Below, one piece after another: positions 1,508-43,774 of a stretch of 64,000 nucleotides of DNA. The position numbers and the translations under genes were made by a program. The notes under the pieces were generated by a model, which worked only from the letters and a program-made list of their open reading frames with translations, was not told where the DNA came from and did not search any database. Source of the stretch: Lentisphaerota bacterium. Lineage in GTDB: Bacteria; Verrucomicrobiota; Kiritimatiellia; JAAZAB01. Where the stretch lies: contig JACPGM010000018.1 of the NCBI GenBank assembly GCA_016188985.1, positions 4,736 to 68,735 of the forward strand, written 5' to 3'. The stretch's first letter is position 1. Every line of letters starts with the position of its first letter.

Positions 1508-1621
1508 AGTTCACAGTTGCTGAGTTCTCCTCCAGAGGCGGATCCGCCTACGGCGGAACAGTTGATCGAATTTATTCTCCAATCCGCCAACTGCTGAACT
1601 GTGTACCTGGAACCGTGAACC
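1508..1621. repeat. Inverted GTGAAC-type heptad arms flanking a GGCGGATCCGCC palindrome
   Basis: Left arm AGTTCACAGTTGCTGAGTTC (1508-1527). Right arm GAACTGTGTACCTGGAACCGTGAACC (1596-1621). Centre: GGCGGATCCGCC at 1537-1548 followed by TACGGCGGAA. Confidence 0.7.
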
Positions 1622-1677
1622 AAGCTGCGAATGCATCTATAGCGCTTTTCCCCCGGCCGTCAATCTTTTTGTAATGG

Positions 1678-1847
1678 GTCAGTTATAGGGGGGAAGTATG
1701 AATACGGCTGTGCCGGCTGCGAGGCTTAGCCGACACCGCCGAGATTCCTCGCTAACGCTCGGAATGACCGTGTCTGCGTGTCATGTCGAGCGAAGTCGAG
1801 ACATCTCACTTCAGTGGTATACTTCTGGTTGCCCCCCAATAACTGAC
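1678..1847. repeat. 170-bp element bounded by about 22-bp inverted repeats (MITE-like)
   Basis: GTCAGTTATAGGGGGGAAGTAT (1678-1699) versus the reverse complement of 1819-1847, GTCAGTTATTGGGGGGCAACCAGAAGTAT. The core contains hairpins GATTCCTCGCTAACGCTCGGAATGAC and GTCATGTCGAGCGAAGTCGAGACATCTC. Confidence 0.6.
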
Positions 1848-1931
1848 GCACTACATCTTTTTTAACATTTTGCTTGCTAAGTTCCAGGCATATAATCATA
1901 ATATGCTCCGAAAGCGAGGGGTGTATCGTAA

Positions 1932-2390
1932 ATGAACGATAGCCTGGCCAACGAGCAGGTAACCACCGAGGATATTGTCTTTGAATGCAATGCCTGCGGC
2001 CAAAGCCTGGTAATTAATGCCTTGGGCGCGGGCTTGGCGGTGGTTTGTCCGGCCTGTGGCGGCGAACTCCAGGTCCCGGAGACCCGGGGGGCGGATGGCG
2101 GCCTGAACGGGGCTGCTTTTACCGATGGCAACGGGAAAATTGAGCGGGAACTGCCGGAGATTTCCGAGTTGCTGGCTGATGCACGCACGCAGATTGATAC
2201 GCTCAGGCTGGAGATAGATGAATTGCAGGTCCGCCGTCAGTTTCTGGAGAAGCGTTATAGCCGCACGTCCCAGGGTCTGCAGGCGCTCCGGCGGGAGCTG
2301 AGCGCGATCCGCAAAGCGTTTGACCAGGTGGATGCCACGCTCAAGACCCTGGAAGAGTCGCCCGCCGGCGATACTCAGCCGATTGCCTGA
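1932..2390 (+). CDS. Hypothetical zinc-ribbon plus coiled-coil protein
   Basis: CNACG..17 aa..CPACG pair, then a heptad-like helical segment (LRLEIDELQVRRQFLEKRY). ATG is preceded by GAGGGG. No family recognised. Confidence 0.55.
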   Translation: MNDSLANEQVTTEDIVFECNACGQSLVINALGAGLAVVCPACGGELQVPETRGADGGLNGAAFTDGNGKIERELPEISELLADARTQIDTLRLEIDELQVRRQFLEKRYSRTSQGLQALRRELSAIRKAFDQVDATLKTLEESPAGDTQPIA

Positions 2391-2396
2391 GGCGGA

Positions 2397-2455
2397 CCGG
2401 AGAAGACGGACGCCAGACGACGGACGACAGCCCGGAGAAGACAGACGACGGAGAG
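2397..2455 (+). repeat. GACGRMS heptad array with CCGGAGAAGAC cap, 7 nt after a stop codon
   Basis: CCGGAGAAGACGGACGCCAGACGACGGACGACAGCCCGGAGAAGACAGACGACGGAGAG. Same motif as in 17726-17873, 25706-25750 and inside the secretin gene. Confidence 0.8.
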
Positions 2456-2472
2456 CGGCCTGGTTGCTCCGC

Positions 2473-2611: not shown

Positions 2612-3694
2612 TTATTCGGCATTTCTCAAGAGCGGCGTGAGGCAGGTCTTGAGTTCGGCGCTCAAGTCGCGCTGCCGGTAGCGCTCCAGGCGCTGACGCT
2701 CTCCGGCGAGCACGGCTTCCCGCAGTGGTCCTGGCCGGACAAGCTGGCCCATCATCTCGGCGATTTCCTCCCATTTTTTTTCGCGCACCAGCACGCCGGC
2801 GCCGGAAAGAGTTTCCGGCACGGCCCCGGCGGCATAGGCCAGGATCGGCAGGTCGTGGGCCATGCTTTCGATGAGCGGAATACAGAATCCCTCATGTTCG
2901 CTCATACACAGGAACAGGTGCGCCCCCTGGTAATAGGCGCTCAACTCGTTCTGCGTCACGGTGCCGCTAAAGACAACCGGGTCGAGGCGCAGCCGGGCGG
3001 CATAAGCGCTCAGCAGGGCCTGGTAACGCTCAAGGCCCGTGAATGAGCCGACGTGAATGAACCGCGCGGCGCTCTCAACGAATTTCTGGAAATAGAAGAA
3101 GGCCAGGAGCGCATCTTCAATGCGCTTGTTGGGCACACAGCGGCCGACAAAGAGGATATTAATCCGGCCGTCGCGGAGCCCGCGCAGCACGCGGGAGTCG
3201 GGACGCGCGCCGATGGCCCTGAAATCCAGCACCAGCGGCACGACGCGCACGTCGGCATATCCCAGCGCGGTCAGCTCCGCGGCATTAAAAGAACTGACCG
3301 CCAGGTTGACCGCGGCCGTTTTAGCCAGTGAACGGGTCTGTTCCCGGCCCCAGGCCAGTTCGTGGACGAGCTCTTCCTGCAGGCCCCGGAAAAAGTGAGC
3401 GGGGGTAATATTGTGATAGCGCAGGGCCTTGCGGCAATTCAAGCCCTCAAAGATGTCGTTCACCCTCGAGCCGATTGAAAGGTGCAGCAAAGCAATATCA
3501 GCGGGACCGATTGAGCCGGGGGCCTCCGTGGCGGCACGGGCCTCAGCGCGCAAGTCAGGGCTGGTGTGATTGGGCTCGCAAAAAATTTCGGAGACATAAC
3601 CCCATCTTCGGAATAGGGCGCGCAGCTCCAGCGCCTCGTTACTGATGGCATCGGCGGGAGTGAACCCGGCCACAAGCTGATGAATGGCTTTCAT
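2612..3694 (-). CDS. Glycosyltransferase, GT4 (group 1) family
   Basis: FVGRCVPNKRIEDAL...LFLCMSEHEGFCIPLIESMAHDLPILAYAAGAVPETL is a typical GT-B E-x7-E region. Start overlaps the upstream GT stop (ATGA at 3691-3694). Confidence 0.85.
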   Translation of the reverse strand: MKAIHQLVAGFTPADAISNEALELRALFRRWGYVSEIFCEPNHTSPDLRAEARAATEAPGSIGPADIALLHLSIGSRVNDIFEGLNCRKALRYHNITPAHFFRGLQEELVHELAWGREQTRSLAKTAAVNLAVSSFNAAELTALGYADVRVVPLVLDFRAIGARPDSRVLRGLRDGRINILFVGRCVPNKRIEDALLAFFYFQKFVESAARFIHVGSFTGLERYQALLSAYAARLRLDPVVFSGTVTQNELSAYYQGAHLFLCMSEHEGFCIPLIESMAHDLPILAYAAGAVPETLSGAGVLVREKKWEEIAEMMGQLVRPGPLREAVLAGERQRLERYRQRDLSAELKTCLTPLLRNAE

Positions 3695-5339: not shown

Positions 5340-5344
5340 AGATA

Positions 5345-5558
5345 GTTCACGGTTTAAGGGTTCACGGTTCAATGGTTGGAAGACACAGCCGGTTGTGCAA
5401 AATAAGGCATCCAGATAGAGTATTTGCCAGTTTGTAGCTTGTGGCCATTCATAAACCGCTCCAGTAACTATGAACCGTTGAACCCGCCGTCGCTCGTTGA
5501 CCTATGGCGGGCAGGCCGCGAACTGTGAACCGCTGAACTGTGAACTGTGAACCCAACC
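5345..5558. repeat. Inverted GTGAACY heptad arrays forming a long interrupted hairpin
   Basis: Left: GTTCACGGTTTAAGGGTTCACGGTTCAATGGTTGG (5345-5379). Right: TGAACCGTTGAACCC (5471-5485) and GAACTGTGAACCGCTGAACTGTGAACTGTGAACCCAACC (5520-5558). Confidence 0.8.
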
Positions 5559-5573
5559 AGTCTTGTCGTTAGG

Positions 5574-6125
5574 TTAGAAATGATAGTTCAGCCAGAGGCC
5601 GTATTCGAGCTCCTTGGGCTTGAAATCGCCGATGTTGCTCCACTTTTCCAGGACGTAATACGCGAGGGCGTCCACTGAAAATTTTTTGCCCAGCGGCAGG
5701 CTAAGGCCCAGCATCAGTTGCCAATAGGGGTCGAGCCAATCGTCTTCGTCGGAGTCGCCGCGGATATAACTGGTCAGAAGCCCGACGCCGCCGCGGAACG
5801 CGCGGTCCTTGATGATCAAATTAACCTGGGGCGTGATGACAAAATCAATTTGGTTGGTATTGGACTCGTCGCGCGCGCCGGAAACATCCGGCGCCAAATC
5901 AGCGCCGAGCTGCAGCCCGATATGCTCCTGGGCGAAGGTATAGGCCAGGGCATAGGACAGGTCGGCATTGCCGAACGGCAGGTTGGTGAAGACCGAGTTT
6001 TCGGTGTGATAGCGGCCGCCCAGGTTCAGGCTGTGCGGGCTTTCAGCCGGCGCCGGTTGCCCGGCCAGCGCCACAAGAGCGCTCAGCAGGGGAAGCGCGC
6101 CTTTGATTTTTTTTGTGGTCAGCAT
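5574..6125 (-). CDS. Small outer-membrane beta-barrel protein (OmpW/porin-like)
   Basis: Signal peptide MLTTKKIKGALPLLSALVALAGQPAPA, alternating amphipathic strands, C-terminal aromatic YGLWLNYHF. Confidence 0.6.
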   Translation of the reverse strand: MLTTKKIKGALPLLSALVALAGQPAPAESPHSLNLGGRYHTENSVFTNLPFGNADLSYALAYTFAQEHIGLQLGADLAPDVSGARDESNTNQIDFVITPQVNLIIKDRAFRGGVGLLTSYIRGDSDEDDWLDPYWQLMLGLSLPLGKKFSVDALAYYVLEKWSNIGDFKPKELEYGLWLNYHF

Positions 6126-7506: not shown

Positions 7507-7591
7507 TTCTCCGGTCCGTCGTCTGTCGTCCCACTTCGCCCCTTCGACTTCGCTCAGGGCTTCGCAGGGCAAGCCGCCGTCTGTCGTCCGC
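7507..7591 (-). repeat. CGTC-type heptad arrays (GACG in the sense of the minus-strand upstream gene), 6 nt from the DegT stop
   Basis: TTCTCCGGTCCGTCGTCTGTCGTCCC (7507-7532) and CCGCCGTCTGTCGTCCGC (7574-7591). Between them is CTTCGCCCCTTCGACTTCGCTCAGGGCTTCGCAGGGCAAGC, similar to 15379-15410 and 23507-23540. Confidence 0.75.
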
Positions 7592-8719: not shown

Positions 8720-8828
8720 GACTGTTATCCTTTCGACGGGTATTCCTGAACCGTGAACTGCTTGGCCGAAAGATAGCGCCCTTTGCCGCTGGACGCAAGG
8801 TTTTTTCGGGCAACGACAACAATGCCAC

Positions 8829-8883: not shown

Positions 8884-11800
8884 ATGACTTTTCTCATAAA
8901 GCGCCTATGGGTCTGGGTTCCGGCCGGCATGGGTTTAATGCTCGGCGCCTTAAGCGCGGGGGGGGATGATCCCCTGGGAGCGCGGCAGCCCCGACAAGTC
9001 GGGCCCGTGGCTACAAGCGGAGCGTTGGGCGCGCTGGCGCGGGTGCCCTTTATTCAGAACCAGGGTCAGGTAGCCGACCAGCAAGTGCTCTTCTATGCCC
9101 GCACCTTCGGCGGCGCCGTCTATGTGACGGCCGAGGGCGCCTTGGTGTATGCCCTGCCGCGCGGCGCAGCCGACAGCCAACAGCCGACAGCCGTTCCACA
9201 GATGGTGCTGCTCCGCGAGACGCTGGTGGATGCCGACCTGGTGGCGCCGCCCGCGGGAGCGGAGCGTTCCGGGACTATTATCAATTCCTTCATAGGCGAT
9301 GACCCCTGCCGCTGGCAAGCGAACATCCCTTCGTTCAACGCCGTGGAGTTCGGCGAGATTTACGAAGGCGTTACCCTGGAAGTGCGCGCGGCCGGCAACA
9401 ATGTCGAAAAGATTTTCACCGTTGCGCCCGGGGCCGATCCTGGCCGGATTATCCTTGCGCTCGAAGGCGCCGATGGCGTGAGCATTACCGCGGCGGGTGA
9501 ACTTCAAGCCGAGACAATTTCAGGTCCTGTGCGGTTCAGCGCGCCGGTGGCCTATCAAGTGAGCGCCGCCGGCGAGCGCCAGAACGTGAATGTGGCCTAT
9601 GCCCTGGAAGGCGATCAGATCGGTTTTGGCGTGGGCGCCTTTGATGAGCGGCGGCCGCTGGTGATTGATCCCTTGCTGGCGGCGTCGTTTATCGGCGGGA
9701 GCAGCAACAACGTTATCCGGGCGATAGCGCTGGACAGCCAGACGAACGTGTTTGTGGCCGGCTACACGGCCTCAGCCAATTTCCCGACCGCAACCCCCTA
9801 TGATAGCAGCTATAATGGCGGGCTTTACGACGTGGTGCTTGCCAAGTTCGACCCAAAGCTTACTAACCTCTATGCCGCCACTTATTTGGGCGGTTCGGGC
9901 GCGGACTTTGGCATGGCCCTGGCGGTGAATACCAATAACGGCAGGGTCTACGTGGCGGGTTATACCGATTCCACCAACTTCCCCAGATACGCGGCGATTC
10001 ATAACAACTATGGCGGCGGGGCCTATGAAGCTTTTGTGACGCGCCTGAATAATAACCTCTCAGTGTTGCAGGTCTCGACCTACCTGGGCGGCGCAAACGT
10101 GGACCAGGCCTATGCCCTGGCGCTGGACAGCGAGGGCGAAGTATTCGTGGCGGGGTTGACCTCCTCGACCAATTTCCCGACTACGAACAATGCATTCGGC
10201 ATGTCCTACCAGACCCAGACCAACCGGCCGGGGTCGAACGACGCTTTCATTGTGCGCTTCAACGCCAACCTGAGCGCGAACCTGGCGGCCACTTATTTAG
10301 GCGGCACGAATGATGACGGTGCTTATGCAATGGCCTTGGTAGATAATTCTGTCTACGTGGCGGGCTGGACCACCTCGACCAATTTTCCCGTGCCCAACGG
10401 GGCCGACCAGACGCACAACTACTTGCGCGACGCCTTTGTGGCCCGGCTGACAAACACTTTGACCGGTCTGACCGCGGCTACGTTCCTGGGCGGCACGAAT
10501 AACGAGGAAGCTCTGGCCATATCCGTAGCCTCTTTCACCAATATGGTTTGCGTGGCGGGCTGGACGAGTTCAACAAATTTTCCCCGGAATCCCACCAACA
10601 ATGTATTTGCTCCCGGCTATACAAACACGTTTATGGGCGGGCGCGACGCCTTCCTGACCCGGCTTAGCGTGGGTTTGAACGGTATTTTGGCTTCGACCTA
10701 CCTGGGCGGCGCAACTAATGACGAAGCCACCGCCGTGCTGATCGCCAGCGTGACCAATGACGTGCGGGTCTACGTGGCGGGCTGGACGGATTCCGGAAAT
10801 TTTCCGGTTACCACCAATGCCTACGACACTGCGGCCAATGGCGGGCGCGATGCTTTCGTTTGCTATTGGAGCACCCCCTCCAACTTGCAGGCTTCGACCT
10901 ATTTGGGCGGCGGGACCGACGAGACGGCCTATGCCCTGGCTTTCCAGGCCAGTACCAACGCTCCAGTTTTGTTCGTGGCGGGCGCTACGGCTTCTTCTAA
11001 TTTCCCAGCTACCTTGCGCGCTTATGACTACAGCCGCACCGGCAGCCAGACTAATGACGACGGTTTCGTGGCCAAGCTGGGCGTCGGGTTGGCCTATGGC
11101 ACGCAGAGGTGGAAAATTACGTTTCCGGATCCTGGGGCGTCGGCGGAGTGCAGCTCAATGAGCTTAGGCTGGGATGGAAGTGTGTATATTGGTTTTTGGA
11201 GTAATCTATATGCCTTTGATGCCGAGGGCAATCTGAGCTGGCAGGTAGCGGCGGAGGGCCGGCTTGCTGAATATGCTGGCGGGTTGCTTAATGGGTTAGG
11301 CACAGCTCCGGCCGTTGCCACGAATGGAACCATCTATATCACGACTGAGCGGGCGGGAACAGCGGGCGCGCTGCAAGCGATCAACTCCGCCGGCAGCGTT
11401 CAATGGACTTTCAATGTTGCCGACCGCTGCTTTTACAGTTCGCCGGCCATCGGCAGTAACGGCGTCATTTATTTCGGGACGGTTGGCGGAAAATTCCACG
11501 CGGTGCGCAGCGATGGAGTGGGCTTATGGACCAATACCTTAGGTGGCGCGATCTATTCCTCGCCGGCCATAGCTACCAATGGCGATATCTTCGTGGCGAA
11601 CACGCTGAACGTCTTGTATTCGATCGCGCCCGATGGCCTGACCAACCGGACTTGGGGTCTGGCCAATCCGACCTATTCCTCGCCGGCTATCGGCTCCAAT
11701 GGCTGGGTCTATATTGGCGGCAGTTCCAACTTGTATGCTTTTGATCCGGCCAGTTCTGTGACCCAGTGGGTGTGCATACTGAACGGCGGCCAGATTTTTG

Positions 11801-14800
11801 CCACGCCCACAATCGGCACCAATGGCATGATTTATGTTGGCGCCGGGTCAAACTTGTATGTACTCACTTCCAATGGCACCACTAACCGCATCTGGGCTGT
11901 GAACGGGACTGTAAAATCCACGGCCACGCTGGACACAAACGGCAACGTGCTGGTCGGCGCGGACGTGACCGCCGACCTTCATTATCTACTTTCGCTCAAT
12001 CCCGTCAGCGGGGCCACTAACTGGGCTTGGGAAGTTGATGAGAATATTGCTTATCGTTCGCCGCTTATCCGGCGGGATGGCACGATCTATCTGTCCGACT
12101 GGTTTAATTTTTATTCTATTTTTGGCCCGGCGGCCACGGTGCGGAGCAACTGGCCGACGGCGCGGCACGATGTCTTGCGCACGGGCAACGCCGCGTTTGA
12201 CGCGGCGGCGTTACTAAAGCCTACGGGGCTGTCCGTCAGCCAGGGCGCCTACCAGGACCGGGTGCTGGTTAATTGGACGGGCAATCCCAACGCGGATTAT
12301 TACGAGATTTATCGCAGTTCGACCAACGATCTGACCACGGCCCAGCCGCTGAGCGGTCCGGTGGTGACCACCAATTATATTGATTATTTCAATCCTGATA
12401 TGAAGGGCATTATTTACTATTACTGGGTGAGGGTAACCACGCCCGTGGCCACCAGCGATTTCAGCGATCAGGATGCCGGCGGGGTGCCGCCGAATCCGCC
12501 GACGTGGGTCGAGGGCAGCAAGGGCAATCCCACCAATGCCATCGTCATTACCTGGAATTCTTCGTCGAATGCCACGGCGTATTACCTGTATCACAGCCTG
12601 AACAACGCCACCAATACCGCGGTGTTGTTGTGGACTACCAACACGGCCGCTACCAACATGATCTATACCAATTCAGCGCCCATCCGCGGTTTGACCTATT
12701 ATTACTGGGTGAAGGCGGGCAATGCCCAGGCCGGGATCAGCGACTTCAGCGCGGGCGGCGGCTACATCAATTCCGGCGGCACGCCGCCTCTGCCGCCGGT
12801 AACCGTCACGGCGACTTCCAATTCCTACGTGGCGGTAACGGTCGCCTGGAGTTCCTCGACCGGCGCCAGCATGTATGCGGTCTACCGCAACACGAACGCC
12901 GTCATTCCCGATAGCATCCTGACCAACTTGAGCGGCCTGGTCTTCAGCAATACGGCAACGGTCGCCTTCCAGAACTATTATTACTGGATCCGCGGGACCA
13001 ACCAGTATGGTCTGGGCGAATTCAGCGATTCGGCAGCAGGTTTCCGTTGGTTGGCGCCGCCCTTGACCGTGCACGCGACCGATGGAGAGTTCACCAATAA
13101 GGTCCGGGTGTCATGGCAGATTGAATCCACGGAGCCCTCGAGTTACCGCATCTGGCGCAGCACTACGCTCGATCCGGATACGTCTTCTAACCAGGCCACC
13201 GTTCCTTATCTGGACTCGACCTCGACCAATTATGACGACCTGAACATCACCCGGGGGCAGGGCTATTATTACTGGCTGCAGTCCCGGAATGACCACGGCA
13301 CCAGCGTATTAAGCGTGGCCTATGACCTCGGCGGCACCGCGCCGTTGGCGCCGGAGAATGTCAGCGCCACCGACGGCACGTTTGCCGACCGGATAAACGT
13401 GGCTTGGAATTCGGCCGGCTTTGCTGTCGTGTACGAAATATACCAGACAAACTCTTATGTGCCTGGCGCGCTGACGGTGCCCTACGCGGTCTCCTCCGGC
13501 ACGGCTTACTCCGATACGGGGGCCAAGCCGGGCGAGCGTTATTATTACTGGCTTAAAGCCAGCAATCAGTTTGGCCGCAGCGAATTGAGCGCGTTCGACA
13601 CCGGCTGGCGCCCCTTGGCGCCGCCGGCGGCGATTGCGGCCAGCGACGGGGTGTCCACGGCGCATCTCTACGTGGTCTGGAGCGCCGCGGAAAACGCTTC
13701 CAGCTATGAATTGTGGCGGGGCACTAACAGCAGCAGCGCCGCCGCGCTGATGGTGAACAATTCCGTTGCGACCAATGCCTATGACGACGCCGAAGCCACG
13801 CAAGGCGTGCTGTATTATTACTGGGTCAAGGCCAAGAATTCGCAGTTCAGCAGCGAGTTCAGTTCTTATGACAGCGGCTTCCGGGCCTTGGGGCAGGTGG
13901 ATCTGGGTATATCCGACTTCGTGTTCCTGCCGACCTTCATGGCGCCCGGGGGAAGTCCCGCGGCGGTATCTTTCCGTATTGCCAACTACGGTCAATTCGA
14001 CATGACCGAACCAAACTCCGCCTGGCTTGCCTGTAACTTTTATGTTTCCAGTAATGCCGTGTTTGGCGATGGCGATGACGACTGGTTGGGCGATTATACG
14101 ATGAGCTTGCCCCTGCCGGTCAACAGCAATGTCGTAGTGGTCTTGTCAAAGACCGTCCGGCAGTCGCTCGCCCTGCCCGCGGTTCTGCCCGGCGCGTATT
14201 ACGTGTATGTGAATATTCAGCATACTTTGCCCTCGACCTGGTTGGACCCGAATACGGCCAACAATACGGCCGAACGCAACGGCGGTGTTGTTCTTGTCGG
14301 AACCAATCAGCAGGCGGTGGGGTTCATGATGGCGATTAATGATTACAATGGCGATGGCTTGACCGACCTGGCCATGTATCAGGAGACGGCCGGCGCTTGG
14401 GCCGTATGGTTGTCCAGAAATTATGATCAGGTTGCGGCCAGCGGGTTCGGCGGAGCGAACTTCAGGGCGGTTCCCGCTGATTACGATGGCGATGGCAAGA
14501 CCGACTTGGCGGTTTATCGGGAAAGTAGCGGAACCTGGGAAGTATGGCTCTCGGCCAGTGATTATGGCATGACAACTGCTTCTGGATTAGGTGGCGCCGG
14601 TTTTGATCCGGTGCCGGCGGATTACGATGGCGATGGTCGCGTGGATCCGGCGGTGTACCAGGAAAGCACGGGGACCTGGATGGGGTGGCTTTCCGGCGCC
14701 GGCTATGCGGCGGTTACGGCCCCCGGCCTGGGAGGAACCGGTTTTGATCCGGTACCGGCCGATTACGATGGTGACGGTCGGGCGGACCCGGCGGTATATC

Positions 14801-15186
14801 AGGAGAGCACGGGATTCTGGATGGCCTGGCTCTCCAGTAACGGATATTCCATGGCAGCAGGCGCGGGGTTAGGAGGGGCGGGCTATCGGCCGGTGGCGGC
14901 TGATTATGACCGCGATGGGTTGGCCGATCCGGCGGTTTTCCAGGCGAGTTCGGGCGCCTGGCGCGTTTGGCTCTCGGCCAGCCTGTATGCGGAAGTCCGC
15001 GCCCAGGGCATGGGCGCAGCGGGCATGGTGGCCGCGCCGGGCGATTATGACGGCGATGGGCTGACGGATCCGGCGGTGTATTGGGCTTCTTTCAGCATGT
15101 GGCGCATGTGGCTCTCGACCCAGGGTTACCAGGAGATGAGTGTCCTGGCATGGCCGGGCGATGGGTACCAGCCGGTCTGGCCGTAG
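8884..15186 (+). CDS. Giant secreted multi-domain protein: SBBP beta-propeller repeats, PQQ-like propeller, about 7 FN3-like domains, CARDB-like domain, 6 FG-GAP/VCBS repeats
   Basis: Signal peptide; VPFIQNQGQV..FYAR N-domain. Seven YLGG..D.A.A...D....VYVAG.T.S.NFP repeats. IYSSPAIG.NG.IY propeller blades. Repeated YYYWV(K/R)A FN3-like cores. DYDGDG.(T/V)D.AVY repeats. GGGAG RBS. Confidence 0.9.
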   Translation: MTFLIKRLWVWVPAGMGLMLGALSAGGDDPLGARQPRQVGPVATSGALGALARVPFIQNQGQVADQQVLFYARTFGGAVYVTAEGALVYALPRGAADSQQPTAVPQMVLLRETLVDADLVAPPAGAERSGTIINSFIGDDPCRWQANIPSFNAVEFGEIYEGVTLEVRAAGNNVEKIFTVAPGADPGRIILALEGADGVSITAAGELQAETISGPVRFSAPVAYQVSAAGERQNVNVAYALEGDQIGFGVGAFDERRPLVIDPLLAASFIGGSSNNVIRAIALDSQTNVFVAGYTASANFPTATPYDSSYNGGLYDVVLAKFDPKLTNLYAATYLGGSGADFGMALAVNTNNGRVYVAGYTDSTNFPRYAAIHNNYGGGAYEAFVTRLNNNLSVLQVSTYLGGANVDQAYALALDSEGEVFVAGLTSSTNFPTTNNAFGMSYQTQTNRPGSNDAFIVRFNANLSANLAATYLGGTNDDGAYAMALVDNSVYVAGWTTSTNFPVPNGADQTHNYLRDAFVARLTNTLTGLTAATFLGGTNNEEALAISVASFTNMVCVAGWTSSTNFPRNPTNNVFAPGYTNTFMGGRDAFLTRLSVGLNGILASTYLGGATNDEATAVLIASVTNDVRVYVAGWTDSGNFPVTTNAYDTAANGGRDAFVCYWSTPSNLQASTYLGGGTDETAYALAFQASTNAPVLFVAGATASSNFPATLRAYDYSRTGSQTNDDGFVAKLGVGLAYGTQRWKITFPDPGASAECSSMSLGWDGSVYIGFWSNLYAFDAEGNLSWQVAAEGRLAEYAGGLLNGLGTAPAVATNGTIYITTERAGTAGALQAINSAGSVQWTFNVADRCFYSSPAIGSNGVIYFGTVGGKFHAVRSDGVGLWTNTLGGAIYSSPAIATNGDIFVANTLNVLYSIAPDGLTNRTWGLANPTYSSPAIGSNGWVYIGGSSNLYAFDPASSVTQWVCILNGGQIFATPTIGTNGMIYVGAGSNLYVLTSNGTTNRIWAVNGTVKSTATLDTNGNVLVGADVTADLHYLLSLNPVSGATNWAWEVDENIAYRSPLIRRDGTIYLSDWFNFYSIFGPAATVRSNWPTARHDVLRTGNAAFDAAALLKPTGLSVSQGAYQDRVLVNWTGNPNADYYEIYRSSTNDLTTAQPLSGPVVTTNYIDYFNPDMKGIIYYYWVRVTTPVATSDFSDQDAGGVPPNPPTWVEGSKGNPTNAIVITWNSSSNATAYYLYHSLNNATNTAVLLWTTNTAATNMIYTNSAPIRGLTYYYWVKAGNAQAGISDFSAGGGYINSGGTPPLPPVTVTATSNSYVAVTVAWSSSTGASMYAVYRNTNAVIPDSILTNLSGLVFSNTATVAFQNYYYWIRGTNQYGLGEFSDSAAGFRWLAPPLTVHATDGEFTNKVRVSWQIESTEPSSYRIWRSTTLDPDTSSNQATVPYLDSTSTNYDDLNITRGQGYYYWLQSRNDHGTSVLSVAYDLGGTAPLAPENVSATDGTFADRINVAWNSAGFAVVYEIYQTNSYVPGALTVPYAVSSGTAYSDTGAKPGERYYYWLKASNQFGRSELSAFDTGWRPLAPPAAIAASDGVSTAHLYVVWSAAENASSYELWRGTNSSSAAALMVNNSVATNAYDDAEATQGVLYYYWVKAKNSQFSSEFSSYDSGFRALGQVDLGISDFVFLPTFMAPGGSPAAVSFRIANYGQFDMTEPNSAWLACNFYVSSNAVFGDGDDDWLGDYTMSLPLPVNSNVVVVLSKTVRQSLALPAVLPGAYYVYVNIQHTLPSTWLDPNTANNTAERNGGVVLVGTNQQAVGFMMAINDYNGDGLTDLAMYQETAGAWAVWLSRNYDQVAASGFGGANFRAVPADYDGDGKTDLAVYRESSGTWEVWLSASDYGMTTASGLGGAGFDPVPADYDGDGRVDPAVYQESTGTWMGWLSGAGYAAVTAPGLGGTGFDPVPADYDGDGRADPAVYQESTGFWMAWLSSNGYSMAAGAGLGGAGYRPVAADYDRDGLADPAVFQASSGAWRVWLSASLYAEVRAQGMGAAGMVAAPGDYDGDGLTDPAVYWASFSMWRMWLSTQGYQEMSVLAWPGDGYQPVWP
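14341..15183 (+). repeat. Six tandem 138-141-nt coding repeats (47-aa FG-GAP/VCBS-like units)
   Basis: GATTA(C/T)(A/G)A(T/C)GG(C/T)GA(T/C)GG units start at 14341, 14479, 14620, 14761, 14902 and 15043. Confidence 0.85.
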
Positions 15187-15202: not shown

Positions 15203-15263
15203 CAAACGAAGCAAACGTCCAACGCCCAACGCCCAACGCCCAACGTCCAACGTCCAACGTCGA
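15203..15263 (+). repeat. CCAACGY heptad array with GCAAACG and TCGAATG caps, 17 nt after the stop of the giant gene
   Basis: CAAACGAAGCAAACG TCCAACG CCCAACG CCCAACG CCCAACG TCCAACG TCCAACG TCGAATG. Period 7 continues into GAATGAA AACGAAG AATAAAG AATCGGA. Confidence 0.85.
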
Positions 15264-17873: not shown

Positions 17874-17965
17874 CGGTATATTGTCGGTATGGTTCGCGGG
17901 CGAAATGATTTTGTTGCGGATATTGGTTTGGTATTATATCCTTATCTGATGGAGGTGATGAACTT

Positions 17966-19406: not shown

Positions 19407-19518
19407 TTGGAAAACGGCGGTAGGCCGTGGGCTGTGCCCTTCGCTCGCCTCGGTGTAGCCTCCGGCGGAGCCTGGGTGCGACAGCTACAAAAATTATTAG
19501 TGATTAAAAAATTTGCTT

Positions 19519-26653: not shown

Positions 26654-26677
26654 GCCGTAGGCTAAAGACCAGGCCAA

Positions 26678-28561: not shown

Positions 28562-28565
28562 CCCC

Positions 28566-29526: not shown

Positions 29527-29702
29527 TCACAGGGCGATGCCCTGGGCTGTGATGTCGCACGCCGTTGGCGTGCACGGAACGGCGATGCCGTGGGAACCGT
29601 GGCACGCCAAAGGCGTACATGGAAATGGTGAGGCCCTATAATGTGAAATCGGGGCACCCCGAAGGGGTGCAACATCATAGCCCAGGGTGCAACCCTGGGA
29701 GC
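29527..29702. repeat. Tandem double-hairpin units followed by a GCACCCC..GGGGTGC / CCCAGGG..CCCTGGG palindrome
   Basis: Two units of about 47 nt, each with CRGGGC/ACGGC-GAT-GCCCTG/GCCGT and G(C/T)ACGCC-NNN-GGCGT(G/A)C hairpins (29527-29622). GGGCACCCCGAAGGGGTGCAACATCATAGCCCAGGGTGCAACCCTGGGAGC (29652-29702). Confidence 0.75.
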
Positions 29703-30855: not shown

Positions 30856-33800
30856 ATGAAATCTGCGGTCATCTTGTTTGTTGCCGGGGTAATCCTGTTG
30901 ACCCACACCGTTGGGAGCGTCCTGGCCCAGGACGAAAACCAGCCTGAAACTGACGCGGAAGTTGATGTTACGGCCTTGCCGGAGAATCCGAATCCGCCGA
31001 CACCACCGCCTGAGGCCGTGGCTGAGCCGCCGGCCGAGATGCCAGCCGTTGCCGAACCTGTGGCTGAAACTCCCGTTGTTGCGCCGGAACAAATTGAACC
31101 CGCCACGCCTGTAGACCAGGCTCCAATAGAAACGGAGCCGGCCTTGCCGGAGAAGACAGACGACGGACGCCGGACGCCGGACGCCGGCCTGGAACCGGAG
31201 AAGCCCGCCGTTGTAGAACCCGCGGAAAAACCGGCGGAGGAAGAGACGGCCATCACGCCCGCGGAAGCTGAGCCGCCCTCCGAAGTAACCGCTCCAACGG
31301 TCGCGGAACAGCCCGCGGAACCTGCGGCTGCCGAAGGGGAGCCCATCCCGGCGGTTGTCGAGCCTGCCGCCGAACCAGTAGTCGTCGAGACTGCCCCGGA
31401 ACCGGAAGCCATAGAGCCGACCCCCGAGGCGGTGGTTGAAACGCCCGAGGTGCCAACGGCCTTGCCGGAGAAGACGGACGCCGGACGCCGGACGCCGGAC
31501 GACGGCTTGGAACCGGAGACGACAGACACCGGACGCCGGACGCCGGACGACGGCTTGGAACCGGAGAAGACGGACGACAGCCTGGAACCGGAGAAGCTCC
31601 CTGTAAAAGGAGAAGAAGAAATTGTTTTTGAATTGGAGCGCGAGGCGGTGAGTGCCACGCCGGAAGAGCCGTCCGAGGCGGTTGAAGAAGCGGTAGGCGC
31701 TGAGCCGAAGGTGTCGCTGTGGCGGCGTCTTGTGGGGCGGGTGCCGCGCGAGCCGGAGGCAGGTAAAGAAGTTGAAGTTGGCGCGCCGAGCGCCGAAGAA
31801 AAAACGCTTACGCCGGAAGAACTGGTTGCCGCCCAGGAAGAAGTGCGGCGCCAGGCCAGGGAAGTTGAGGCGCTTAAATCACTGGATCAGGCCTACCAGG
31901 CGATGGGCCGCAACGAATTTGAGAGCGCCTTGAAACTTTTTAACCAGGCGCTGAACCTTATGCCCATCCGCCCGCATACGGTGGAAACGCGGCAGAAAGC
32001 CAGACAGAGCCAGGCCGAATGCGAGTATCGCCTGGCGCTGAGTTACTACAAGGCCGGTAACTATAAAGATGCCAAAGCCGCCATCAGCCGCGCCTTGGAA
32101 TTCTACCCGGCGCATCAGCGCGTCGCGCGCCTGAGCGCCGACATCAAAAAGGAAGAAGAGCGCATAGCTGAAATCGCCGACCGACCCACGCCGCCCCGCC
32201 TGGCTACGGAGTATCTCGATCGGCAAGGACAGATCAGCGCCGCCATTGATCGCGGCCGGCAGTATTATGCCATCGGCGACTATGAAAAAGCCCGCCGCGA
32301 ATTCCGCAATGTGCTTGCACTCGATGAAAAGAACGACGAAGCCGCCGCCCAGTTGAAAAAGCTTGCCGACAAAATGTACCTGCTCGAAACCGACCAGATG
32401 ACCCGCCAGCAGGCCGAGATGATCTCACAGGTGCGCGATACGTGGACTCCGCCGGTCAGGCGCGAAATCGTCGGTCCGGGGGCGGTCGGGCCGGGTCCCG
32501 AGCCTTTCCGGCCGGGTAAACGCCGGCTGCTGGAGAAGTTGAATGCTATCCAAATTCCCAAGTTGGAGTTCCGCCAGGCTAATATCGTGGATGTGATCAA
32601 GTATCTTGACGAGGTCAGTGTCGCTAATGACAAGGAATCGGCGCCGGGCGAAAAGGGCGTGAATTTTATTCTACATTTAAAGCGGCCGGATGCCGCGGAA
32701 GTGGCGCCGACCCAGCCGGTGGAGGGCGAGCTTGTGGGCGAGGAAGCGACCGTAACCCCGCCGCCGACATCACTGCCGACGGTAACCTTGAGCTTGCGCA
32801 ACATTGTGCTGATGGATGCCATTAAATATATTACGGAAGTTACCGGGTTAAAATACCGGATTGAGGAAAATGTGGTTATTATTACGCCTGCCGATATGAT
32901 CACCGAAGCGTTGATCACGCGCACTTATAAAGTTCAGCCCGCCATTGCGGATATGATTATTGGCGCGGCGGAAACCGCCGGGGGCGTTACCGAGCTGGGC
33001 GGCCCGGCGCCGACCGTGGAGCGGGGCGACGTGAAAAAATTCTTTATTGATGCCGGCGTGCCTTTTCCGGATAGCACCTCGATTGTCTACAAGCCGAGCT
33101 TAAACCTGCTGATCGTCAAGAACACGGCCGAAAACCTGGAAAACTTTGAGCGCATCCTCAACTCCCTGAACGTTGTGCCGGTGCAGGTGGAAATCGAGGC
33201 CCGTTTTGTGGAAGTGGCTCAGAGCGACCTGGAGGAGCTGGGCCTGGAGTGGTTATTGACCGACAACTGGGAAGTGGCCCAGGATGCCAGCGCTAATGCC
33301 CCGCTGCAGCTCAGCGCCCGTGAACGCATCCAGGTGAATCAGGGCTCTTTTTCGAGGGGCCTGCGCACCCTGGCCATGGGCGCCAGCGGTGTCGCGGCGG
33401 TCCCCGGCGGCGATATGGCCGGGGTAATCTCCATTGCCAGCGTTCTGACCAATCCGGAAATGACCATGATTCTGCATGCCCTCGAGCAGCGCAGCGGCGC
33501 TAATCTGCTGTCCGCGCCCAAGGTGACCACCCGCAGCGGCGCCAACGCCGAAATCAAAGTGGTTCGCGAACTGATTTATCCGACCGAATTTACCTTAACC
33601 CAACCGCAGGTTTCGGGGAGTGGCGCCGGCAGCCTGGCGGTGGTAGGTCAAGCCGTGGTTACCCCGGCGGGGTTCGAAAAGCGCGATACGGGCGTCGTGC
33701 TGAATGTTACGCCGACCGTGGGGCCGGACGGTTTTTCCATTGACCTGGTTATGCTGCCCCAGGTGGTTGAACTGGCCGATTGGATCAATTATGGCTCATC

Positions 33801-34164: not shown

Positions 34165-34175
34165 GCTCTCTTTTT

Positions 34176-34259
34176 CGATTGCCGATTTGCGATTTCAGAT
34201 TTCCCTGGATAAGGCAGACTACGTGCAGAATTAGTAATCGGTAATCGGCAGTCGCAATC
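34176..34259. terminator. Heptad-periodic inverted arms 12 nt after the secretin stop (hairpin; candidate terminator)
   Basis: CGATTGCCGATTTGCGATTTCAGATTT (34176-34202) versus ATTAGTAATCGGTAATCGGCAGTCGCAATC (34230-34259). End of the operon. No clear U-tract. Confidence 0.4.
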
Positions 34260-34300
34260 ATATTTTTCTGTAGCCGTCGGACGTCAGGCCGACGTTCCGG

Positions 34301-40362: not shown

Positions 40363-41694
40363 ATGAAAATAAAAGTGGAAAAGGCCGGACCGTGCCGGAA
40401 AATAATGGAGGTGACTGTGCCGGCCGAAACTGTGGCGGCGGAATATGCCACGGCGGTCGCGGCCTATGTGAAGAATGCGAAAATGCCGGGATACCGGCCG
40501 GGTCGCGCGCCATCGGCGCTGGTCGAACGCCGCTATGCCCGCGAAATTGATGAAAGCGTCCAGGAAGCCGTAGTGGCCCAAACCTACCCGGAAGCGCTGA
40601 AACGCTCCGCGCTCGATCCCGTGGCCGTCCTTGATTTGAACGTTACCCTGAAACGCAACGAGAGCGCAACTTACAAGGTTACTTTGGATGTGCCCCCGGA
40701 GTTCAAGCTGCCGAAGTATAAAGGCATCAGCCTCAAGGAAAAACCCGCGGACGTTTCCGCTGAAGCCCTTCAGCGGGCTTTTACTCAGTGGCTCGAGCGC
40801 CATGCATCTTTTGAAGAAGTAACCGGCCGCCCGGTGGCCAAAGGCGACGCCGTCCAGGTTGATTTTGAAGGCCGCCTTGATGGCCGACCGCTTGCGGCGC
40901 TGGGCAAGCGCGTGGGCGCCCTCGCCCAAGCCAGGGATTTATGGATCATGGCGGATGAAAGTACGCCATTGCCCGGCTTCGGCTTGGGGCTCCTGGACCT
41001 TGCGGTGGGCGCCCGCCGCGAAATCACCGTTGCCTTTCCTGCCGATTTCGGTGTTGCGGAATTGGCCGGTAAAGCGGCGGTCTACCAGGTGCGGGTCAAG
41101 GCTATCCGCGCCAAGCGCTTGCCAACCCTGGATGAACAGCTCCTCAAAAAAGCCGGAGTGGCCTCGGAAGCCGAGTTGCGCGGCAAGCTGAAAGAAGCGT
41201 TGGAACACGAGACGCAACGAACGGCCAGAGAACGGCAAAAGGAAGAAATCATCAAACACCTGCTGGCGCGCACGACGCTGGAACTGCCGGAAACGCTCGT
41301 GCAGGAAGAAATCCGCCACCAGTTTTCCGCGCTGGTTCGCCAGAATCTGCTGCGGGGTGTTCCCCGCGAACAGTTGACCGAAAAAAGGGGGGATCTCCTG
41401 ACCGCGGCGACCAACACGGCTACGGAAAAAGTCAAGCTGGGCTATATTCTGCACCGCATTGCCGAGGAAGAAAAGATCACGCTGAGCGACCAGGAACTGG
41501 CTGCGTCTGTGGATGCCCTGGCCCAGCGCTATGCGGTGCCCAGCGCCGAACTACGCAAGGAATTGGAAGAAAAAAAAGAAATGGATTCTATCCGGCACCA
41601 GGCGCGCATGGATAAAACGCTCGATTTTCTGCTGACGGAATCCCGCGGCGAGGAGGAAGAAGCGGGCTTGTTCGGCCGCCTGCTGGGCCGCTGA
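40363..41694 (+). CDS. tig: Trigger factor
   Basis: MKIKVEKAGPCRKIMEVTVPAE..; PGYRPGRAP; FKBP-type middle domain; conserved tig-clpP-clpX order. The track ORF starts at TTG 40345; ATG 40363 preferred. Confidence 0.9.
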   Translation: MKIKVEKAGPCRKIMEVTVPAETVAAEYATAVAAYVKNAKMPGYRPGRAPSALVERRYAREIDESVQEAVVAQTYPEALKRSALDPVAVLDLNVTLKRNESATYKVTLDVPPEFKLPKYKGISLKEKPADVSAEALQRAFTQWLERHASFEEVTGRPVAKGDAVQVDFEGRLDGRPLAALGKRVGALAQARDLWIMADESTPLPGFGLGLLDLAVGARREITVAFPADFGVAELAGKAAVYQVRVKAIRAKRLPTLDEQLLKKAGVASEAELRGKLKEALEHETQRTARERQKEEIIKHLLARTTLELPETLVQEEIRHQFSALVRQNLLRGVPREQLTEKRGDLLTAATNTATEKVKLGYILHRIAEEEKITLSDQELAASVDALAQRYAVPSAELRKELEEKKEMDSIRHQARMDKTLDFLLTESRGEEEEAGLFGRLLGR

Positions 41695-41775
41695 GTTAAT
41701 TTTTTTAATTTCAGCTTGCCAGTTGAGAACGGGAAATGATAATCGCCAATCAGAAATCATAAAAGGGGGTTTATT

Positions 41776-42393
41776 ATGGATACTTCGAACCAGATGTTAG
41801 TGCCGATGGTGGTGGAGCAAACCGGGCGCGGCGAGCGCGCCTATGACATCTATTCGCGGCTGTTGAAGGATCGGATCATCTTTCTGGGAACGGTCATTTC
41901 CGATGAAGTCAGCAGCCTGATCGTGGCCCAGATGCTGTTTCTGCAGGCGGAAGACGCCAATAAGGATATCAGCTTCTACATCAACACGGCCGGCGGCTCG
42001 GTGACCGCCGGCATGGCTATTTATGACACCATCCAGTTTCTCAAGTGCGATGTGGCCACCTACTGCGTGGGCCAGGCGGCCAGCATGGGCTCCATCCTGC
42101 TGGCGGCCGGGACGTCAGGCAAGCGCTTTGCCCTGCCGCACGCGCGGATCATGATGCATCAACCCTGGGGCGGGGTGCAGGGCGCGGCGGCCGATATCAG
42201 CATCCAGGCTCAGGAAATCCTGCGGATCCGCGATATTCTTAATGGTCTCCTGGCCAGGCATACCGGCAAGCCGGTTGAGGTCGTGGCCAAAGATACGGAC
42301 CGTGATTTCTTCATGTCCCCGGAAGAGGCGAAAAATTACGGCCTGGTGGATGAAGTGCTCGTCGGACGTAAAGGCCTGGAAGTTAAGCAATAA
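41776..42393 (+). CDS. clpP: ATP-dependent Clp protease proteolytic subunit
   Basis: [27 protein letters not shown] (Ser), MMHQP (His), DTDRDFF (Asp). Confidence 0.95.
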
Positions 42394-42407
42394 GCAGGAG
42401 ATAATTC

Positions 42408-43658
42408 ATGGCCAGACGCAACTTGCCGGCCTGTTCTTTTTGCGGGCGGAGCCGTGACCAAGTGGCCCAGTTGCTCGTCGGCTCAGGATCCAATATCTGC
42501 GACGCCTGTGTTGAGGCCAGCCGTAGGATTTTGAGCGAGCAGCCGGGCGCCGTCGCGCCCGCCGGCGCCCTGCTCAAGGTGCCCAAGCCGCACGAGATCA
42601 AGGCGTTCCTGGATGCCTATGTTGTCGGCCAGGAATACGCCAAGAAGGCGCTGGCCGTGGCGGTGCATAATCATTACAAGCGCCTGAACCAGGGCGCTCA
42701 TTTTTCCGCCGGCGACCCCTTGGCCGGCGTGGAGATTCAGAAGAGCAATATCCTTCTCATCGGGCCGACCGGCAGCGGCAAGACGTTGCTGGCCCAGACC
42801 CTGGCGCGGCTCCTGGAGGTGCCCTTCAGCATTTCGGATGCTACCCCGCTGACCGAGGCCGGCTACGTGGGCGAGGACGTGGAAAATGTGCTCTTGCGCC
42901 TGATTCAGGCCGCCAACATGGATGTCGCGCGCGCGGAACGCGGCATCATCTATATTGACGAGATTGATAAAATTGGCCGTAAAGCCGAGAATGTTTCGAT
43001 CACCCGCGATGTTTCCGGCGAAGGCGTGCAGCAAGCCCTCCTGAAAATCCTGGAAGGCACCGTTGCCAACGTGCCGGCCCACGGCGGACGTAAACATCCC
43101 CAGGAACAGTTCATCAAGATCAATACCGAGGGCATCCTCTTTATTTGCGGCGGCGCCTTTGTCGGCCTGGAGGAGATTGTCCGGCGCCGCCTGGGTGCGC
43201 GCGCGATTGGTTTTATCAAACCGTCGGCCGGGGATGCGCCGGACAAGCAGGGCCATAATCCGCTCAAGGCGGTGGAACCGGAAGACCTGATCCGCTACGG
43301 GATGATCCCTGAATTTGTGGGCCGGGTGCCGGTGATCGTAGTGCTGGATGAGTTGTTGGAAGCTGATCTGGTGCGCGTGCTCACGGAGCCCCGCAACAGC
43401 ATGATCCGCCAGTACGAAAAGCTGATGGCTATGGAGAATATCAAGCTTTCCTTTGTGCCGGCGGCTCTGCGCGAGTTGGCTCGCTTGGCCGTCCGCAAGA
43501 AGACCGGCGCCCGCGGTCTGCGTTCCATCCTGGAACGCATCATGCTGGATATCATGTACGAGGCGCCGAGGCAAACGCACGCGCGCGCCTGTCAGATCAC
43601 CAAAGCCGTCGTGAATGCGCACTATGCCGACGTTGACCAGAACCGCCAGACCGCCTGA
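42408..43658 (+). CDS. clpX: ATP-dependent Clp protease ATP-binding subunit ClpX
   Basis: CSFCGRS...ICDACV zinc finger, [31 protein letters not shown]. Confidence 0.95.
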
Positions 43659-43668
43659 CGGCGGGTGA

Positions 43669-43774
43669 GACGTCAGAAATCGGAGGTCAGCGGTCAGAGT
43701 ATAGAGGTGGACAAGCTAAATGCCATGCGCATTTCGTCTGACTGCTGACTTCTGACCACTGACTTCTGGTCAGA
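43669..43774. terminator. Heptad-periodic inverted arms between convergent clpX and panD (hairpin; candidate bidirectional terminator)
   Basis: GACGTCAGAAATCGGAGGTCAGCGGTCAGAG (43669-43699) versus CGTCTGACTGCTGACTTCTGACCACTGACTTCTGGTCAGA (43735-43774). The right arm overlaps the panD stop codon. Confidence 0.45.

Follow-up and report, generated by a model that had tools for sequence, protein, structure and literature searches.

Tandem repeats of seven-nucleotide units, known since 1990 from some bacterial genomes, have remained a curiosity without explanation. PF05635, the family of the 23S rRNA intervening-sequence protein (S23p), comprises bAvd-like four-helix bundles; we know of no function for these proteins, despite two solved pentameric structures (2GSC, 2RLD), and of no origin for the 23S rRNA intervening sequences (IVSs). 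This article assesses the period-7 arrays found within a stretch of 64,000 nucleotides (nt) from a Lentisphaerota bacterium of the class Kiritimatiellia (contig JACPGM010000018.1, positions 4,736 to 68,735, plus strand), hereafter the window, and compares them with arrays in Kiritimatiellae relatives and in other phyla. The window arrays are probably the arms, derivatives without an open reading frame (ORF) and solitary leftovers of IVS-type cassettes that would pair in the transcript and be reshaped by slippage.

Described systems closest to the arrays

IVSs of 23S rRNA with an S23p ORF are known from Coxiella, Leptospira, Azospirillum and others. In the 23S IVS of Coxiella burnetii, AGAAGA is followed by two to three tandem GACAGAT heptamers 5' of the S23p ORF; the copy number of the heptamer varies among strains, and RNase III, which excises 23S rRNA IVSs, cuts at the first repeat (PMC4990558). 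The Kiritimatiellae elements are like these IVSs in their terminal inverted repeats, in the long stem formed around a small four-helix-bundle ORF and in their co-transcription with the host gene. The 5' A/G-rich AGAAGA stretch and the tandem GACAGAT/GACGGAT heptamers of the Coxiella and Azospirillum IVSs also have the same layout as GACG arrays with the CCGGAGAAGAC cap. The Kiritimatiellae elements differ in that they occupy protein-coding operons rather than rRNA, mostly lack an ORF or carry other cargo, have much longer arms (up to ~220 nt) drawn from at least 10 unit families, and have arms that are translated when they fall in leaders or linkers.

The sequence-only reading of the window knew of no description of such arrays, a view that cannot stand, as over-represented heptanucleotide simple-sequence repeats have been published (PMC4692102, PMC4679880). 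GGGAATC of Xanthomonas and GGGGAYT of Nostoc lie ~28 nt from the upstream ORF end, often as convergent pairs (Rehm 2015, PMC4692102); TAACTGA repeats of Beggiatoaceae lie just 5' of start codons (MacGregor 2015, PMC4679880); and three Calothrix heptanucleotides are cited in the latter paper. The likeness of these repeats, including the Calothrix/Anabaena STRR, to those considered here covers tandem 7-nt units, a mostly intergenic position nearer the upstream ORF end, frequent inverted pairs, a length that varies among species at conserved sites, and TAACTGA-like units just 5' of starts. Because repeats at ORF ends, often inverted, are thus known in Xanthomonas, Nostoc/Calothrix and Beggiatoaceae, the arrays are not new in kind. 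The published papers, however, each treat a single unit and propose G-quadruplexes or translational regulation, with none linking the repeats to PF05635, whereas here many unit families stand side by side, in another phylum, with arrays in coding sequence. Three features were not found described in the literature searched and appear new: the one-to-one link of repeat unit to PF05635 lineage, the presence of such cassettes in Kiritimatiellae protein-coding operons, and the translation of arms as pseudopilin leaders and as a secretin linker. Within that literature, no paper besides the Coxiella IVS study (PMC4990558) links PF05635 proteins to heptamer repeats.

The REP, BIME and REPIN elements likewise are extragenic hairpins that accumulate past stops, in mosaic combinations and with inverted doublets as the likely unit, but their arms are a single imperfect palindrome of ~35 nt instead of tandem 7–9-nt repeats, and the gene associated with the present arrays is PF05635, not RAYT. 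Small dispersed repeats nested in the tandem heptameric repeats of Nostoc were reportedly described by Elhai et al. in 2008; the likeness here is a small palindrome (CCYGCCTTCGCC..GGGCAGG type) inside GACG/CGTC arrays, although they share no sequence relationship and come from different phyla.

Period-7 arrays and hairpins in the window

When arrays were scanned for at a threshold of at least 80 % self-match over 21 nt, with ten dinucleotide-preserving shuffles as the control, the window yielded 17 period-7 arrays against none in the shuffles, along with three at period 8 and none at periods 5, 6 and 9–13. The period-7 arrays of the sequence-only reading are real and far over-represented, and Tandem Repeats Finder recovers nearly all of those previously marked. 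No arrays were found between 44 and 64 kb of the window. Every interval carries the unit assigned to it, on the assigned strand, subject to a few corrections: 8747–8758 and 22694–22708 hold at most two units and are meaningless taken alone; the CACGAAA family has a true unit of 9 nt (CACGAAACA) rather than 7; and the intervals ascribed to GTGAACY, AATCGSN, GTCAGAR and CGAATCAY contain those units but each consist of two arms and a loop.

All 11 stop codons said to adjoin arrays terminate real ORFs, with Pfam support, and the closeness of arrays to stops is significant against uniform placement within each gap (Fisher's combined p = 3.6e-4); in four of the gaps in this test the element occupies the whole gap. 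The six inverted pairs proposed earlier are all more stable than their shuffled counterparts, z ranging between -2.3 and -6.5 (1501–1625, -3.96; 5340–5565, -4.09; 20648–20830, -6.48; 26670–26819, -6.47; 34165–34270, -2.33; 43659–43775, -4.43), and a further pair, absent from the earlier list, lies at 19407–19556 (z = -3.53). Over a longer range, the arms 17726–17875 and 18640–18865, which flank mazEF, are complementary (duplex z = -6.7), and at least eight hairpins in the window have terminal inverted repeats that make a long stem. The orientation rule also held, in the window and in relatives alike: all true GACG-family arrays after stops or in linkers read GACG in the mRNA sense, and every CGTC-sense array lies directly 5' of a pseudopilin N-terminal motif.

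A purely intergenic placement, by contrast with these claims, was not borne out, since a large subset of the arrays is translated; those at 15360–15426, 16471–16498, 18725–18862, 19525–19553, 20047–20195, 21945–21972 and 23491–23627 lie inside ORFs. The anatomy of the arrays rules out CRISPR, their units being 7–9 nt long and contiguous rather than repeats of 24–47 nt with unique spacers of similar length, and it also rules out codon periodicity as their source. Nor are they one REP family, the arms being tandem repeats and not a single imperfect palindrome of ~20–40 nt.

PF05635 genes between inverted arms

Relatives of the GspK-like protein of the window, at 40–50 % identity, are found in Kiritimatiellae metagenome-assembled genomes, and ~600 kb of these related loci (given L numbers below) contain 233 period-7 arrays, versus 6, 22, 20, 41 and 11 for periods 5, 6, 8, 9 and 10. 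Arrays are confined to loci whose GspK is at least ~39 % identical. The unit families GACGRCR, CCTACAG, GTCAGAR, CCAACGY, GCTCTCC and GCAGAAT recur in the relatives, which add GAACGAA, TAACTGA-like and GAACACT families. Small ORFs lying between inverted arrays in these genomes belong to PF05635 (Pfam E 1e-22 to 1e-31). Across all of the Kiritimatiellae loci, hmmsearch gave 17 PF05635 ORFs, every one co-oriented with its operon, and inverted arrays bracket 13 of the 14 that were examined, in the constant order of 5' arm, A/G-rich stretch, ORF and 3' arm. Arm unit and protein lineage correspond one to one, as the protein identities indicate:

GACGRCR arms: 94 % identity within the lineage
GTTCTTY arms: 93 % within the lineage
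AGTCAGA arms: 93 % within the lineage
GTCAGAG arms: 87 % within the lineage
CTGTAGG arms: 83–88 % within the lineage
Between lineages: 19–48 %

Copies of the same lineage precede different host genes (gspG, gspH, gspJ and gspK) and are far more alike than their hosts, whose GspK proteins share only the 40–50 % identity given above. Two lineages, each with its own arms, coexist in one genome (L009, L026), and in L002 one cassette is nested within the arms of another. In the CTGTAGG lineage the ORF stop is followed by TCATTATGAAG and then directly by the 3' arm, so that the cassette donates the start codon of the downstream pseudopilin; window gene 19519 (ATGAAACCTACAG..) has kept the arrangement but lacks the ORF. 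Three window families (GACG, CCTACAG and GTCAGAR) are arm units of ORF-bearing cassettes in relatives; the GTCAGAR unit of the clpX gap, for example, forms the arms of an IVS-protein cassette in L012 and L018.

PF05635 cassettes in other phyla

The pattern is general across phyla. Outside the Kiritimatiellae, 13 PF05635 genes sampled at 12 loci all have inverted arms of 7–8-nt tandem units, among them the following:

Lacunisphaera limnophila: GACGGCR / GACAGAT arms
Anaerolineae genome: TCAGTNA / TAACTGA arms
Metagenome contig: GGAGTCY x17 arms
Six cyanobacterial plasmids: GGGGAGCA, GGGAGAGT, GGGTGTA, GGGAARA and other arms
Azospirillum plasmid, a genuine 23S rRNA IVS: GACGGAT GACAGAG GACGGAG GACAGAA and their inverse

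In Xanthomonas, a homologue of the crystallised XCC0516 (2GSC, five chains) sits between accB and accC, and this PF05635 gene (accB-IVP-accC) has GGGAATC and GATTCCC arrays on its flanks. GGGAATC is reported to be highly enriched across the Xanthomonas genome, at ~186 sites of which 70 are convergent pairs; on average the sites lie 28 nt from the upstream ORF. That survey makes no mention of the accB-accC PF05635 gene (PMC4692102). A 50-kb stretch of a Nostoc punctiforme plasmid carries 13 arrays of period 7–8, several as inverted pairs, one of which flanks a PF05635 gene and shares its unit with an ORF-less pair 20 kb off.

Elements of the window

The elements recognized in the window are as follows.

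1505–1622, no strand assigned: ORF-less hairpin by folding, GTGAACY-type arms (1505–1535 / 1590–1622), with a GGCGGATCCGCC mini-hairpin in the loop
2397–2455, plus: solo GACG-family array with two CCGGAGAAGAC caps, 6 nt past stop 2390
5343–5558, no strand assigned: ORF-less hairpin, GTTCACG / GAACTGT arms, loop ~140 nt, 15 nt from the stop of minus-strand gene 5574–6125
7507–7591, minus: GACG-sense array in the minus-strand reading, 6 nt past the DegT stop, ending in CCGGAGAA
15203–15426, plus: CCAACGY x7 array running into ATG 15264, then an inverse partner and CGTC arrays
16471–16498, plus: perfect GCTCTCC x4, encoding ALRSPLSALR immediately 5' of AFTLIELLVV
17726–17873, plus: composite 5' arm of GACG, CCAACG and GACG arrays, beginning one base after stop 17725
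17967–18483, plus: cargo between arms, a small antitoxin-like ORF and a PemK/MazF toxin
18640–18865, plus: 3' arm, an inverse CCAACG remnant and ~19 CGTCYGT units
19417–19553, plus: ORF-less cassette, CTGTRGG 5' arm after stop 19406, loop, ATG 19519, CCTACAG x4 3' arm
20047–20195, plus: GCAGAAT array, inverse CCAACG array and short CGTC array, inside the leader ORF of pseudopilin 20045–20647
20652–20822, plus: hairpin with 9-nt CACGAAACA arms, enclosing an N-terminal fragment of a GxxExxY / PDDEXK_3 gene (Pfam E = 0.002)
21040–21262, plus: GACG array, CCAACG remnant, and CACGAAA array with inverse partner around GGCGGATCTGCC hairpins, fold z = -6.3
21945–21972, plus: perfect GCTCTCC x4, in the leader of GspJ-like pseudopilin 21867–22688
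22694–23627, plus: short GACG remnant after stop 22688, cargo, CGTC arrays with nested palindrome, CCTACAG x4
25706–25750, plus: solo GACG array with CCGGAGAA cap, 4 nt past the GspK-like stop
26678–26823, plus: hairpin of 8-nt units, GATGATTG / CGAATCAY, filling the gap 5' of pilM
31147–31596, plus: in-frame GACG arrays of the secretin N-terminal linker, capped by CCGGAGAAGAC and forming a 48-nt super-repeat
34172–34262, plus: hairpin with GATTKCS arms, 11 nt past the secretin stop
43669–43774, no strand assigned: GTCAGAR hairpin filling the convergent gap after clpX

The solo array at 2397–2455 has no partner arm within its gap, and that at 7507–7591 is broken by a small nested palindrome at about 7520–7565. 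At 15203–15426, a degenerate inverse partner lies at about 15297–15345 and is followed by CGTC arrays that hold a nested palindrome, the arrays all falling within the 55-residue leader of a pseudopilin whose N_methyl motif is at residue 54. The 3' arm at 18640–18865 encodes (RPSSVV)n in the leader of pseudopilin 18597–19406, the CCTACAG x4 arm of the cassette at 19417–19553 encodes the GspH-like leader MKPTVYSLRPTV, and in 22694–23627 the cargo is a DUF433/DUF5615 pair (22836–23468), with the CGTC and CCTACAG arrays in the leader of the GspK-like gene. A search for full GxxExxY genes with flanking CACGAAACA arms returned a single distant match only. The CCGGAGAAGAC caps with GACGRCR units at 2397, 2432 and 31147–31561 amount to an AGAAGA-like stretch plus heptamers, a layout also present in L047, L009 and L067 and in L079, the Azospirillum IVS.

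Several smaller features accompany these elements. The two toxin-antitoxin-like pairs (17967–18483 and 22836–23468) break up the pseudopilin operon. Palindromes of the type CCYGCCTTCGCC-AAGG-GCTWCGSRGGGCAGG are nested in GACG/CGTC arrays at 7520–7565 (minus strand), 15379–15410 and 23506–23538, as well as 5' of gspK in L002, L006 and L009, and in leaders they encode PSPKRLRWAG-like peptides. A GGCGGATCCGCC-centred hairpin family is found at 1537, 2545–2570, 21224, 21271 and 34310, in some cases within the loops of array hairpins; those at 2550 and 21277, of the form GGCGGA..TCCGCC, have a T-run on their 3' side and look like genuine intrinsic terminators. A 141-nt tandem repeat (1.9 copies, 76 % match; 14597–14860) inside the ORF 8884–15186, of 2100 codons, encodes DYDGDG-type repeats at the C-terminus of the giant protein, and L047 has the same. 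Rfam gives an Acido-Lenti-1 RNA match at 29655–29699 on the minus strand (41.5 bits vs a gathering score of 37), in the gap 5' of gene 29741, and similar CATAGCCCAGGGTGC motifs occur at 25811 and 29678. That gap measures ~215 nt in the window vs ~80 nt in L066, and therefore appears to hold another small inserted repeat.

Translation through arrays in pseudopilin leaders and linkers

The genes 3' of arrays between 15 and 26 kb encode type II secretion pseudopilins, whose N-terminal methylation motif begins at residues 36–101 of the ORF, as opposed to the usual position of about 6–10. Arrays lie directly 5' of the [A/G]|F-T-L-[IV]-E motif and, because no in-frame start codon was found between array and motif, they must be translated; the units read as RPSSVV (CGTCCGT), ALRSPLS (GCTCTCC) and PTVYSLR (CCTACAG). 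Each of the seven pseudopilin leaders of the window contains an ATG in frame with the N-methyl motif, with no stop codon in between. In the GspK-like gene of eight related loci, arrays lie between a conserved start context, ATTATGAAG / ATCATGAACATTGA, and the mature N-terminus SGIALVMVLG, the conserved ATG being always in frame and the leader varying from 35 to ~100 amino acids.

Arrays are also carried in frame within linkers. The GACG arrays at 31147–31192 and 31465–31596 are in frame in the secretin gene where, with their CCGGAGAAGAC caps, they encode PEKTDDGRRTPD in a Pro/Glu/Ala-rich linker. GACG arrays occur in frame in the linker of a PilM-like fusion protein (..TKAATTDDGRQTTDDG..) at the same position in four relatives (L002, 6570–6607; L009, 15508–15547; L018, 8036–8064; L066, 2775–2805); none was seen in the pilM of the window at the scan threshold used.

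Turnover of arrays between relatives

L047 and L066 are two contigs of one metagenome that are syntenic with the window at 70–80 % nt identity; no genome closer than this was found, and exact-protein look-ups of two window proteins were empty. At orthologous junctions these contigs carry unit families different from those of the window. For instance, the GspJ-like leader has GCTCTCC x4 in the window and ~190 nt of CGTC units in its L047 ortholog, and where the window has CCTACAG x4, L047 carries a cassette with a gene and 220 nt of CGTC units. Only in the window do the mazEF and DUF433/DUF5615 pairs stand between arms, both being absent at the orthologous places in L047, and the secretin-linker arrays are likewise absent from the L066 ortholog. 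The post-secretin hairpin, of the same family and place in L066, has a loop of 30 nt in the window vs ~200 nt in L066. The pre-pilM junction is occupied in L012 and L018 by a cassette that has GTCAGAG units and an IVS-protein gene, and in L066 by other arrays. The position after the GspK stop has a GACG-type array in L066, L006, L009 and L012 and other units in L002 and L005.

In L066 an 80-nt composite array, missing from the window, is inserted precisely at the boundary of the pilM TGA and the next gene's CCCATG; neither an evident target-site duplication nor a parent insertion sequence, the marks of a MITE, was identified. The composite array begins with CGCTCTGAAGCACGT at both of its insertion sites (1205–1225 and 3070–3090). 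At the pilM junction (window 28553–28562), the first eight bases of the array equal the host's last codons plus stop (CCGCTCTGA), a coincidence suggestive of microhomology-mediated insertion, or else of an element from which the stop codon comes. Immediately 5' of the start of pilM, or of the next gene, several relatives have heptads of the TAACTGA / TCACTRA type with CACTTCCC at their end (L002, 5069–5127; L009, 13984–14020; L066, 1285–1320 and 3140–3165).

Signals at the RNA level

Among 24 ORF-bearing cassettes, some of them orthologous and hence not fully independent, the flanks form the more stable duplex as sense RNA in 18 and as antisense RNA in five, with a mean free-energy difference (ddG) of -8.3 kcal/mol (Wilcoxon p = 0.002) and 225 G-U pairs in sense vs 163 in antisense; this sense-strand bias is what selection on the transcript would give. 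GGA is found in the sense strand of only some unit families when CsrA-type sites are considered. The suggestion that the arrays act as terminators failed, as the array hairpins lack T-runs and are not detected as terminators, and terminator-like sites are not enriched over shuffles; the intrinsic-terminator reading was accordingly rejected. Rfam gave no family for the arrays. There is no rRNA in the window, and every copy belongs to a protein-coding operon, where it sits at a junction or within a gene, not in helix 25 or 45 of 23S rRNA. No RAYT gene was seen in the window or the loci, and no transposase-like gene among the annotated ORFs.

An IVS-type cassette as the probable source of the arrays

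Of the roles put forward in the sequence-only reading, RNase III-type processing sites and a hairpin-dependent mobile process appear to be the best leads, by analogy with the 23S IVS, whose architecture the arrays match. A full cassette, read in the direction of host transcription, consists of a 5' arm of 3–20 tandem units of 7–9 nt, usually purine-rich, then an AGAAGA-like A/G-rich stretch, a small PF05635 ORF and a 3' arm reverse-complementary to the first, with each protein lineage having its own unit. Host operon and cassette would be co-transcribed and the arms would pair in the RNA as a long stem, one that should tolerate register shifts because the arms are periodic. Insertion would then do little harm if, as in the rRNA IVS, the stem is a substrate for RNase III. 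Cassettes would survive only in unconstrained DNA, namely just past stops, in 5' leaders and in dispensable coding sequence, where an arm must be free of stop codons; 3' arms are read through as the leader peptide that is cleaved from a pseudopilin, and GACG arms keep the reading frame of disordered linkers. The mosaic now seen in the window may have arisen as cassettes lost their ORF, took up other cargo (toxin-antitoxin pairs, the GxxExxY fragment), became nested and underwent replication slippage.

On these terms, arrays would lie close to stops because a tight operon offers insertions few unconstrained bases in which to last; the strict orientation rule would follow because the 5' arm comes after the upstream stop and the 3' arm enters the next gene; and 3' arms would keep their orientation in signal-peptide leaders because only a basic, stop-free peptide survives there. 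The cassette would also explain the inverted pairs, fixed caps, many unit families, nesting and cargo between arms. Slippage-prone tracts, another of the earlier suggestions, are plausible as a secondary process.

A number of observations weigh against this interpretation. The profile search found no PF05635 gene in the window, whose copies are for that reason classed as ORF-less derivatives and not as full members; an ORF-bearing copy was not found for 7 of the 10 window unit families; and only ~1/6 of the arrays across the Kiritimatiellae loci flank a PF05635 gene. Orthology among some of the sampled cassettes makes part of the counts non-independent. Neither a target-site duplication nor a transposase or reverse transcriptase was seen, so that the argument for mobility is a comparative one. 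Solo GACG arrays after stops hold their position across species, which could mean a host function. Among ORF-less and mixed pairs, the sense:antisense ratio is 24:12 (p = 0.057), and the pair at 5343–5558 is more stable when folded as the strand antisense to the genes beside it. Finally, the causal direction could be the reverse, with small genes inserting preferentially into pre-existing array hairpins.

Other explanations of the arrays

The arrays might instead be intercistronic RNA stem-loops selected by the host to set mRNA processing, 3'-end stability or translational coupling, with PF05635 genes as occasional passengers. Every relative does have an array after the GspK stop and before the GspK N-terminus, the hairpins are significant, the orientation rule is strict, and elements begin right past stops; moreover, TAACTGA-type units lie just 5' of pilM starts in L002, L009 and L066, as they do before starts in Beggiatoaceae (PMC4679880). 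Yet a host element should hardly change its unit family, length and very presence between relatives that are 70–80 % identical, enter the secretin linker in frame, or be missing from the gaps of the 44–64 kb region, and the array hairpins are unlike intrinsic terminators; we regard this account as improbable. On a narrower point, cassette polarity together with the requirement for a basic leader (RPSSVV vs TDDGRR) accounts for the GACG/CGTC orientation rule more economically than avoidance of Rho would.

Two further explanations do without the cassette. Polymerase slippage with a favoured seven-base unit, as proposed by Mrazek in 2007 according to the citing passages of PMC4679880 and PMC4692102, could make simple-sequence repeats in situ, with neither mobility nor a link to any gene, and is in keeping with the dominance of period 7 and with the varying copy number of orthologous arrays and of Coxiella strains (PMC4990558). 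Random seeds, however, would not yield the same few unit families at many non-orthologous sites in several genomes, nor matched inverted partners, fixed caps and a unit that tracks the protein lineage; slippage in place as the sole origin is already disfavoured, and we consider it distinctly unlikely. More unlikely still is that arrays in 5' coding leaders are contingency loci, in which adding or dropping a single 7-nt unit would shift the frame and turn individual pseudopilins on or off. Perfect GCTCTCC x4 tracts do stand in two leaders, seven is not a multiple of three, and heptanucleotide phase variation is known for Haemophilus HMW1A (PMC8262952, PMC12721329), but slippage is suppressed by the imperfection of most arrays, non-coding DNA and both flanks of genes carry the same families, and the seven window leaders are all in frame from ATG to N-methyl motif.

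Implications

The pseudopilin genes of this clade have leaders of 13 to ~100 amino acids that derive from repeat arms, and start-codon calls and signal predictions for them can be expected to err often. Genes can carry repeat DNA without loss of frame, in leaders that are cleaved as well as in disordered linkers, and a start codon is donated by one of the cassette families. More broadly, and as a tentative conjecture that we think more apt to fail than to hold, the over-represented heptanucleotide tandem arrays known from bacteria (STRR of cyanobacteria, GGGAATC of Xanthomonas, TAACTGA of Beggiatoaceae and those of the Kiritimatiellae) might all be arms of one class of IVS-type mobile cassette, with a pentameric PF05635 protein that recognizes its own 7–8-nt unit. 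If true, there would be a protein-repeat recognition code as well as an unrecognised kind of mobile element that lives inside transcripts, whether rRNA or coding leaders, and that is tolerated through the pairing of its arms in RNA. The finding most likely connects the heptanucleotide repeats of bacteria, so long without an explanation, with a single protein family, in the setting of a Kiritimatiellae secretion operon, and, should the association hold genome-wide, these repeats, the function of PF05635 proteins and the origin of the 23S IVS would become one puzzle.

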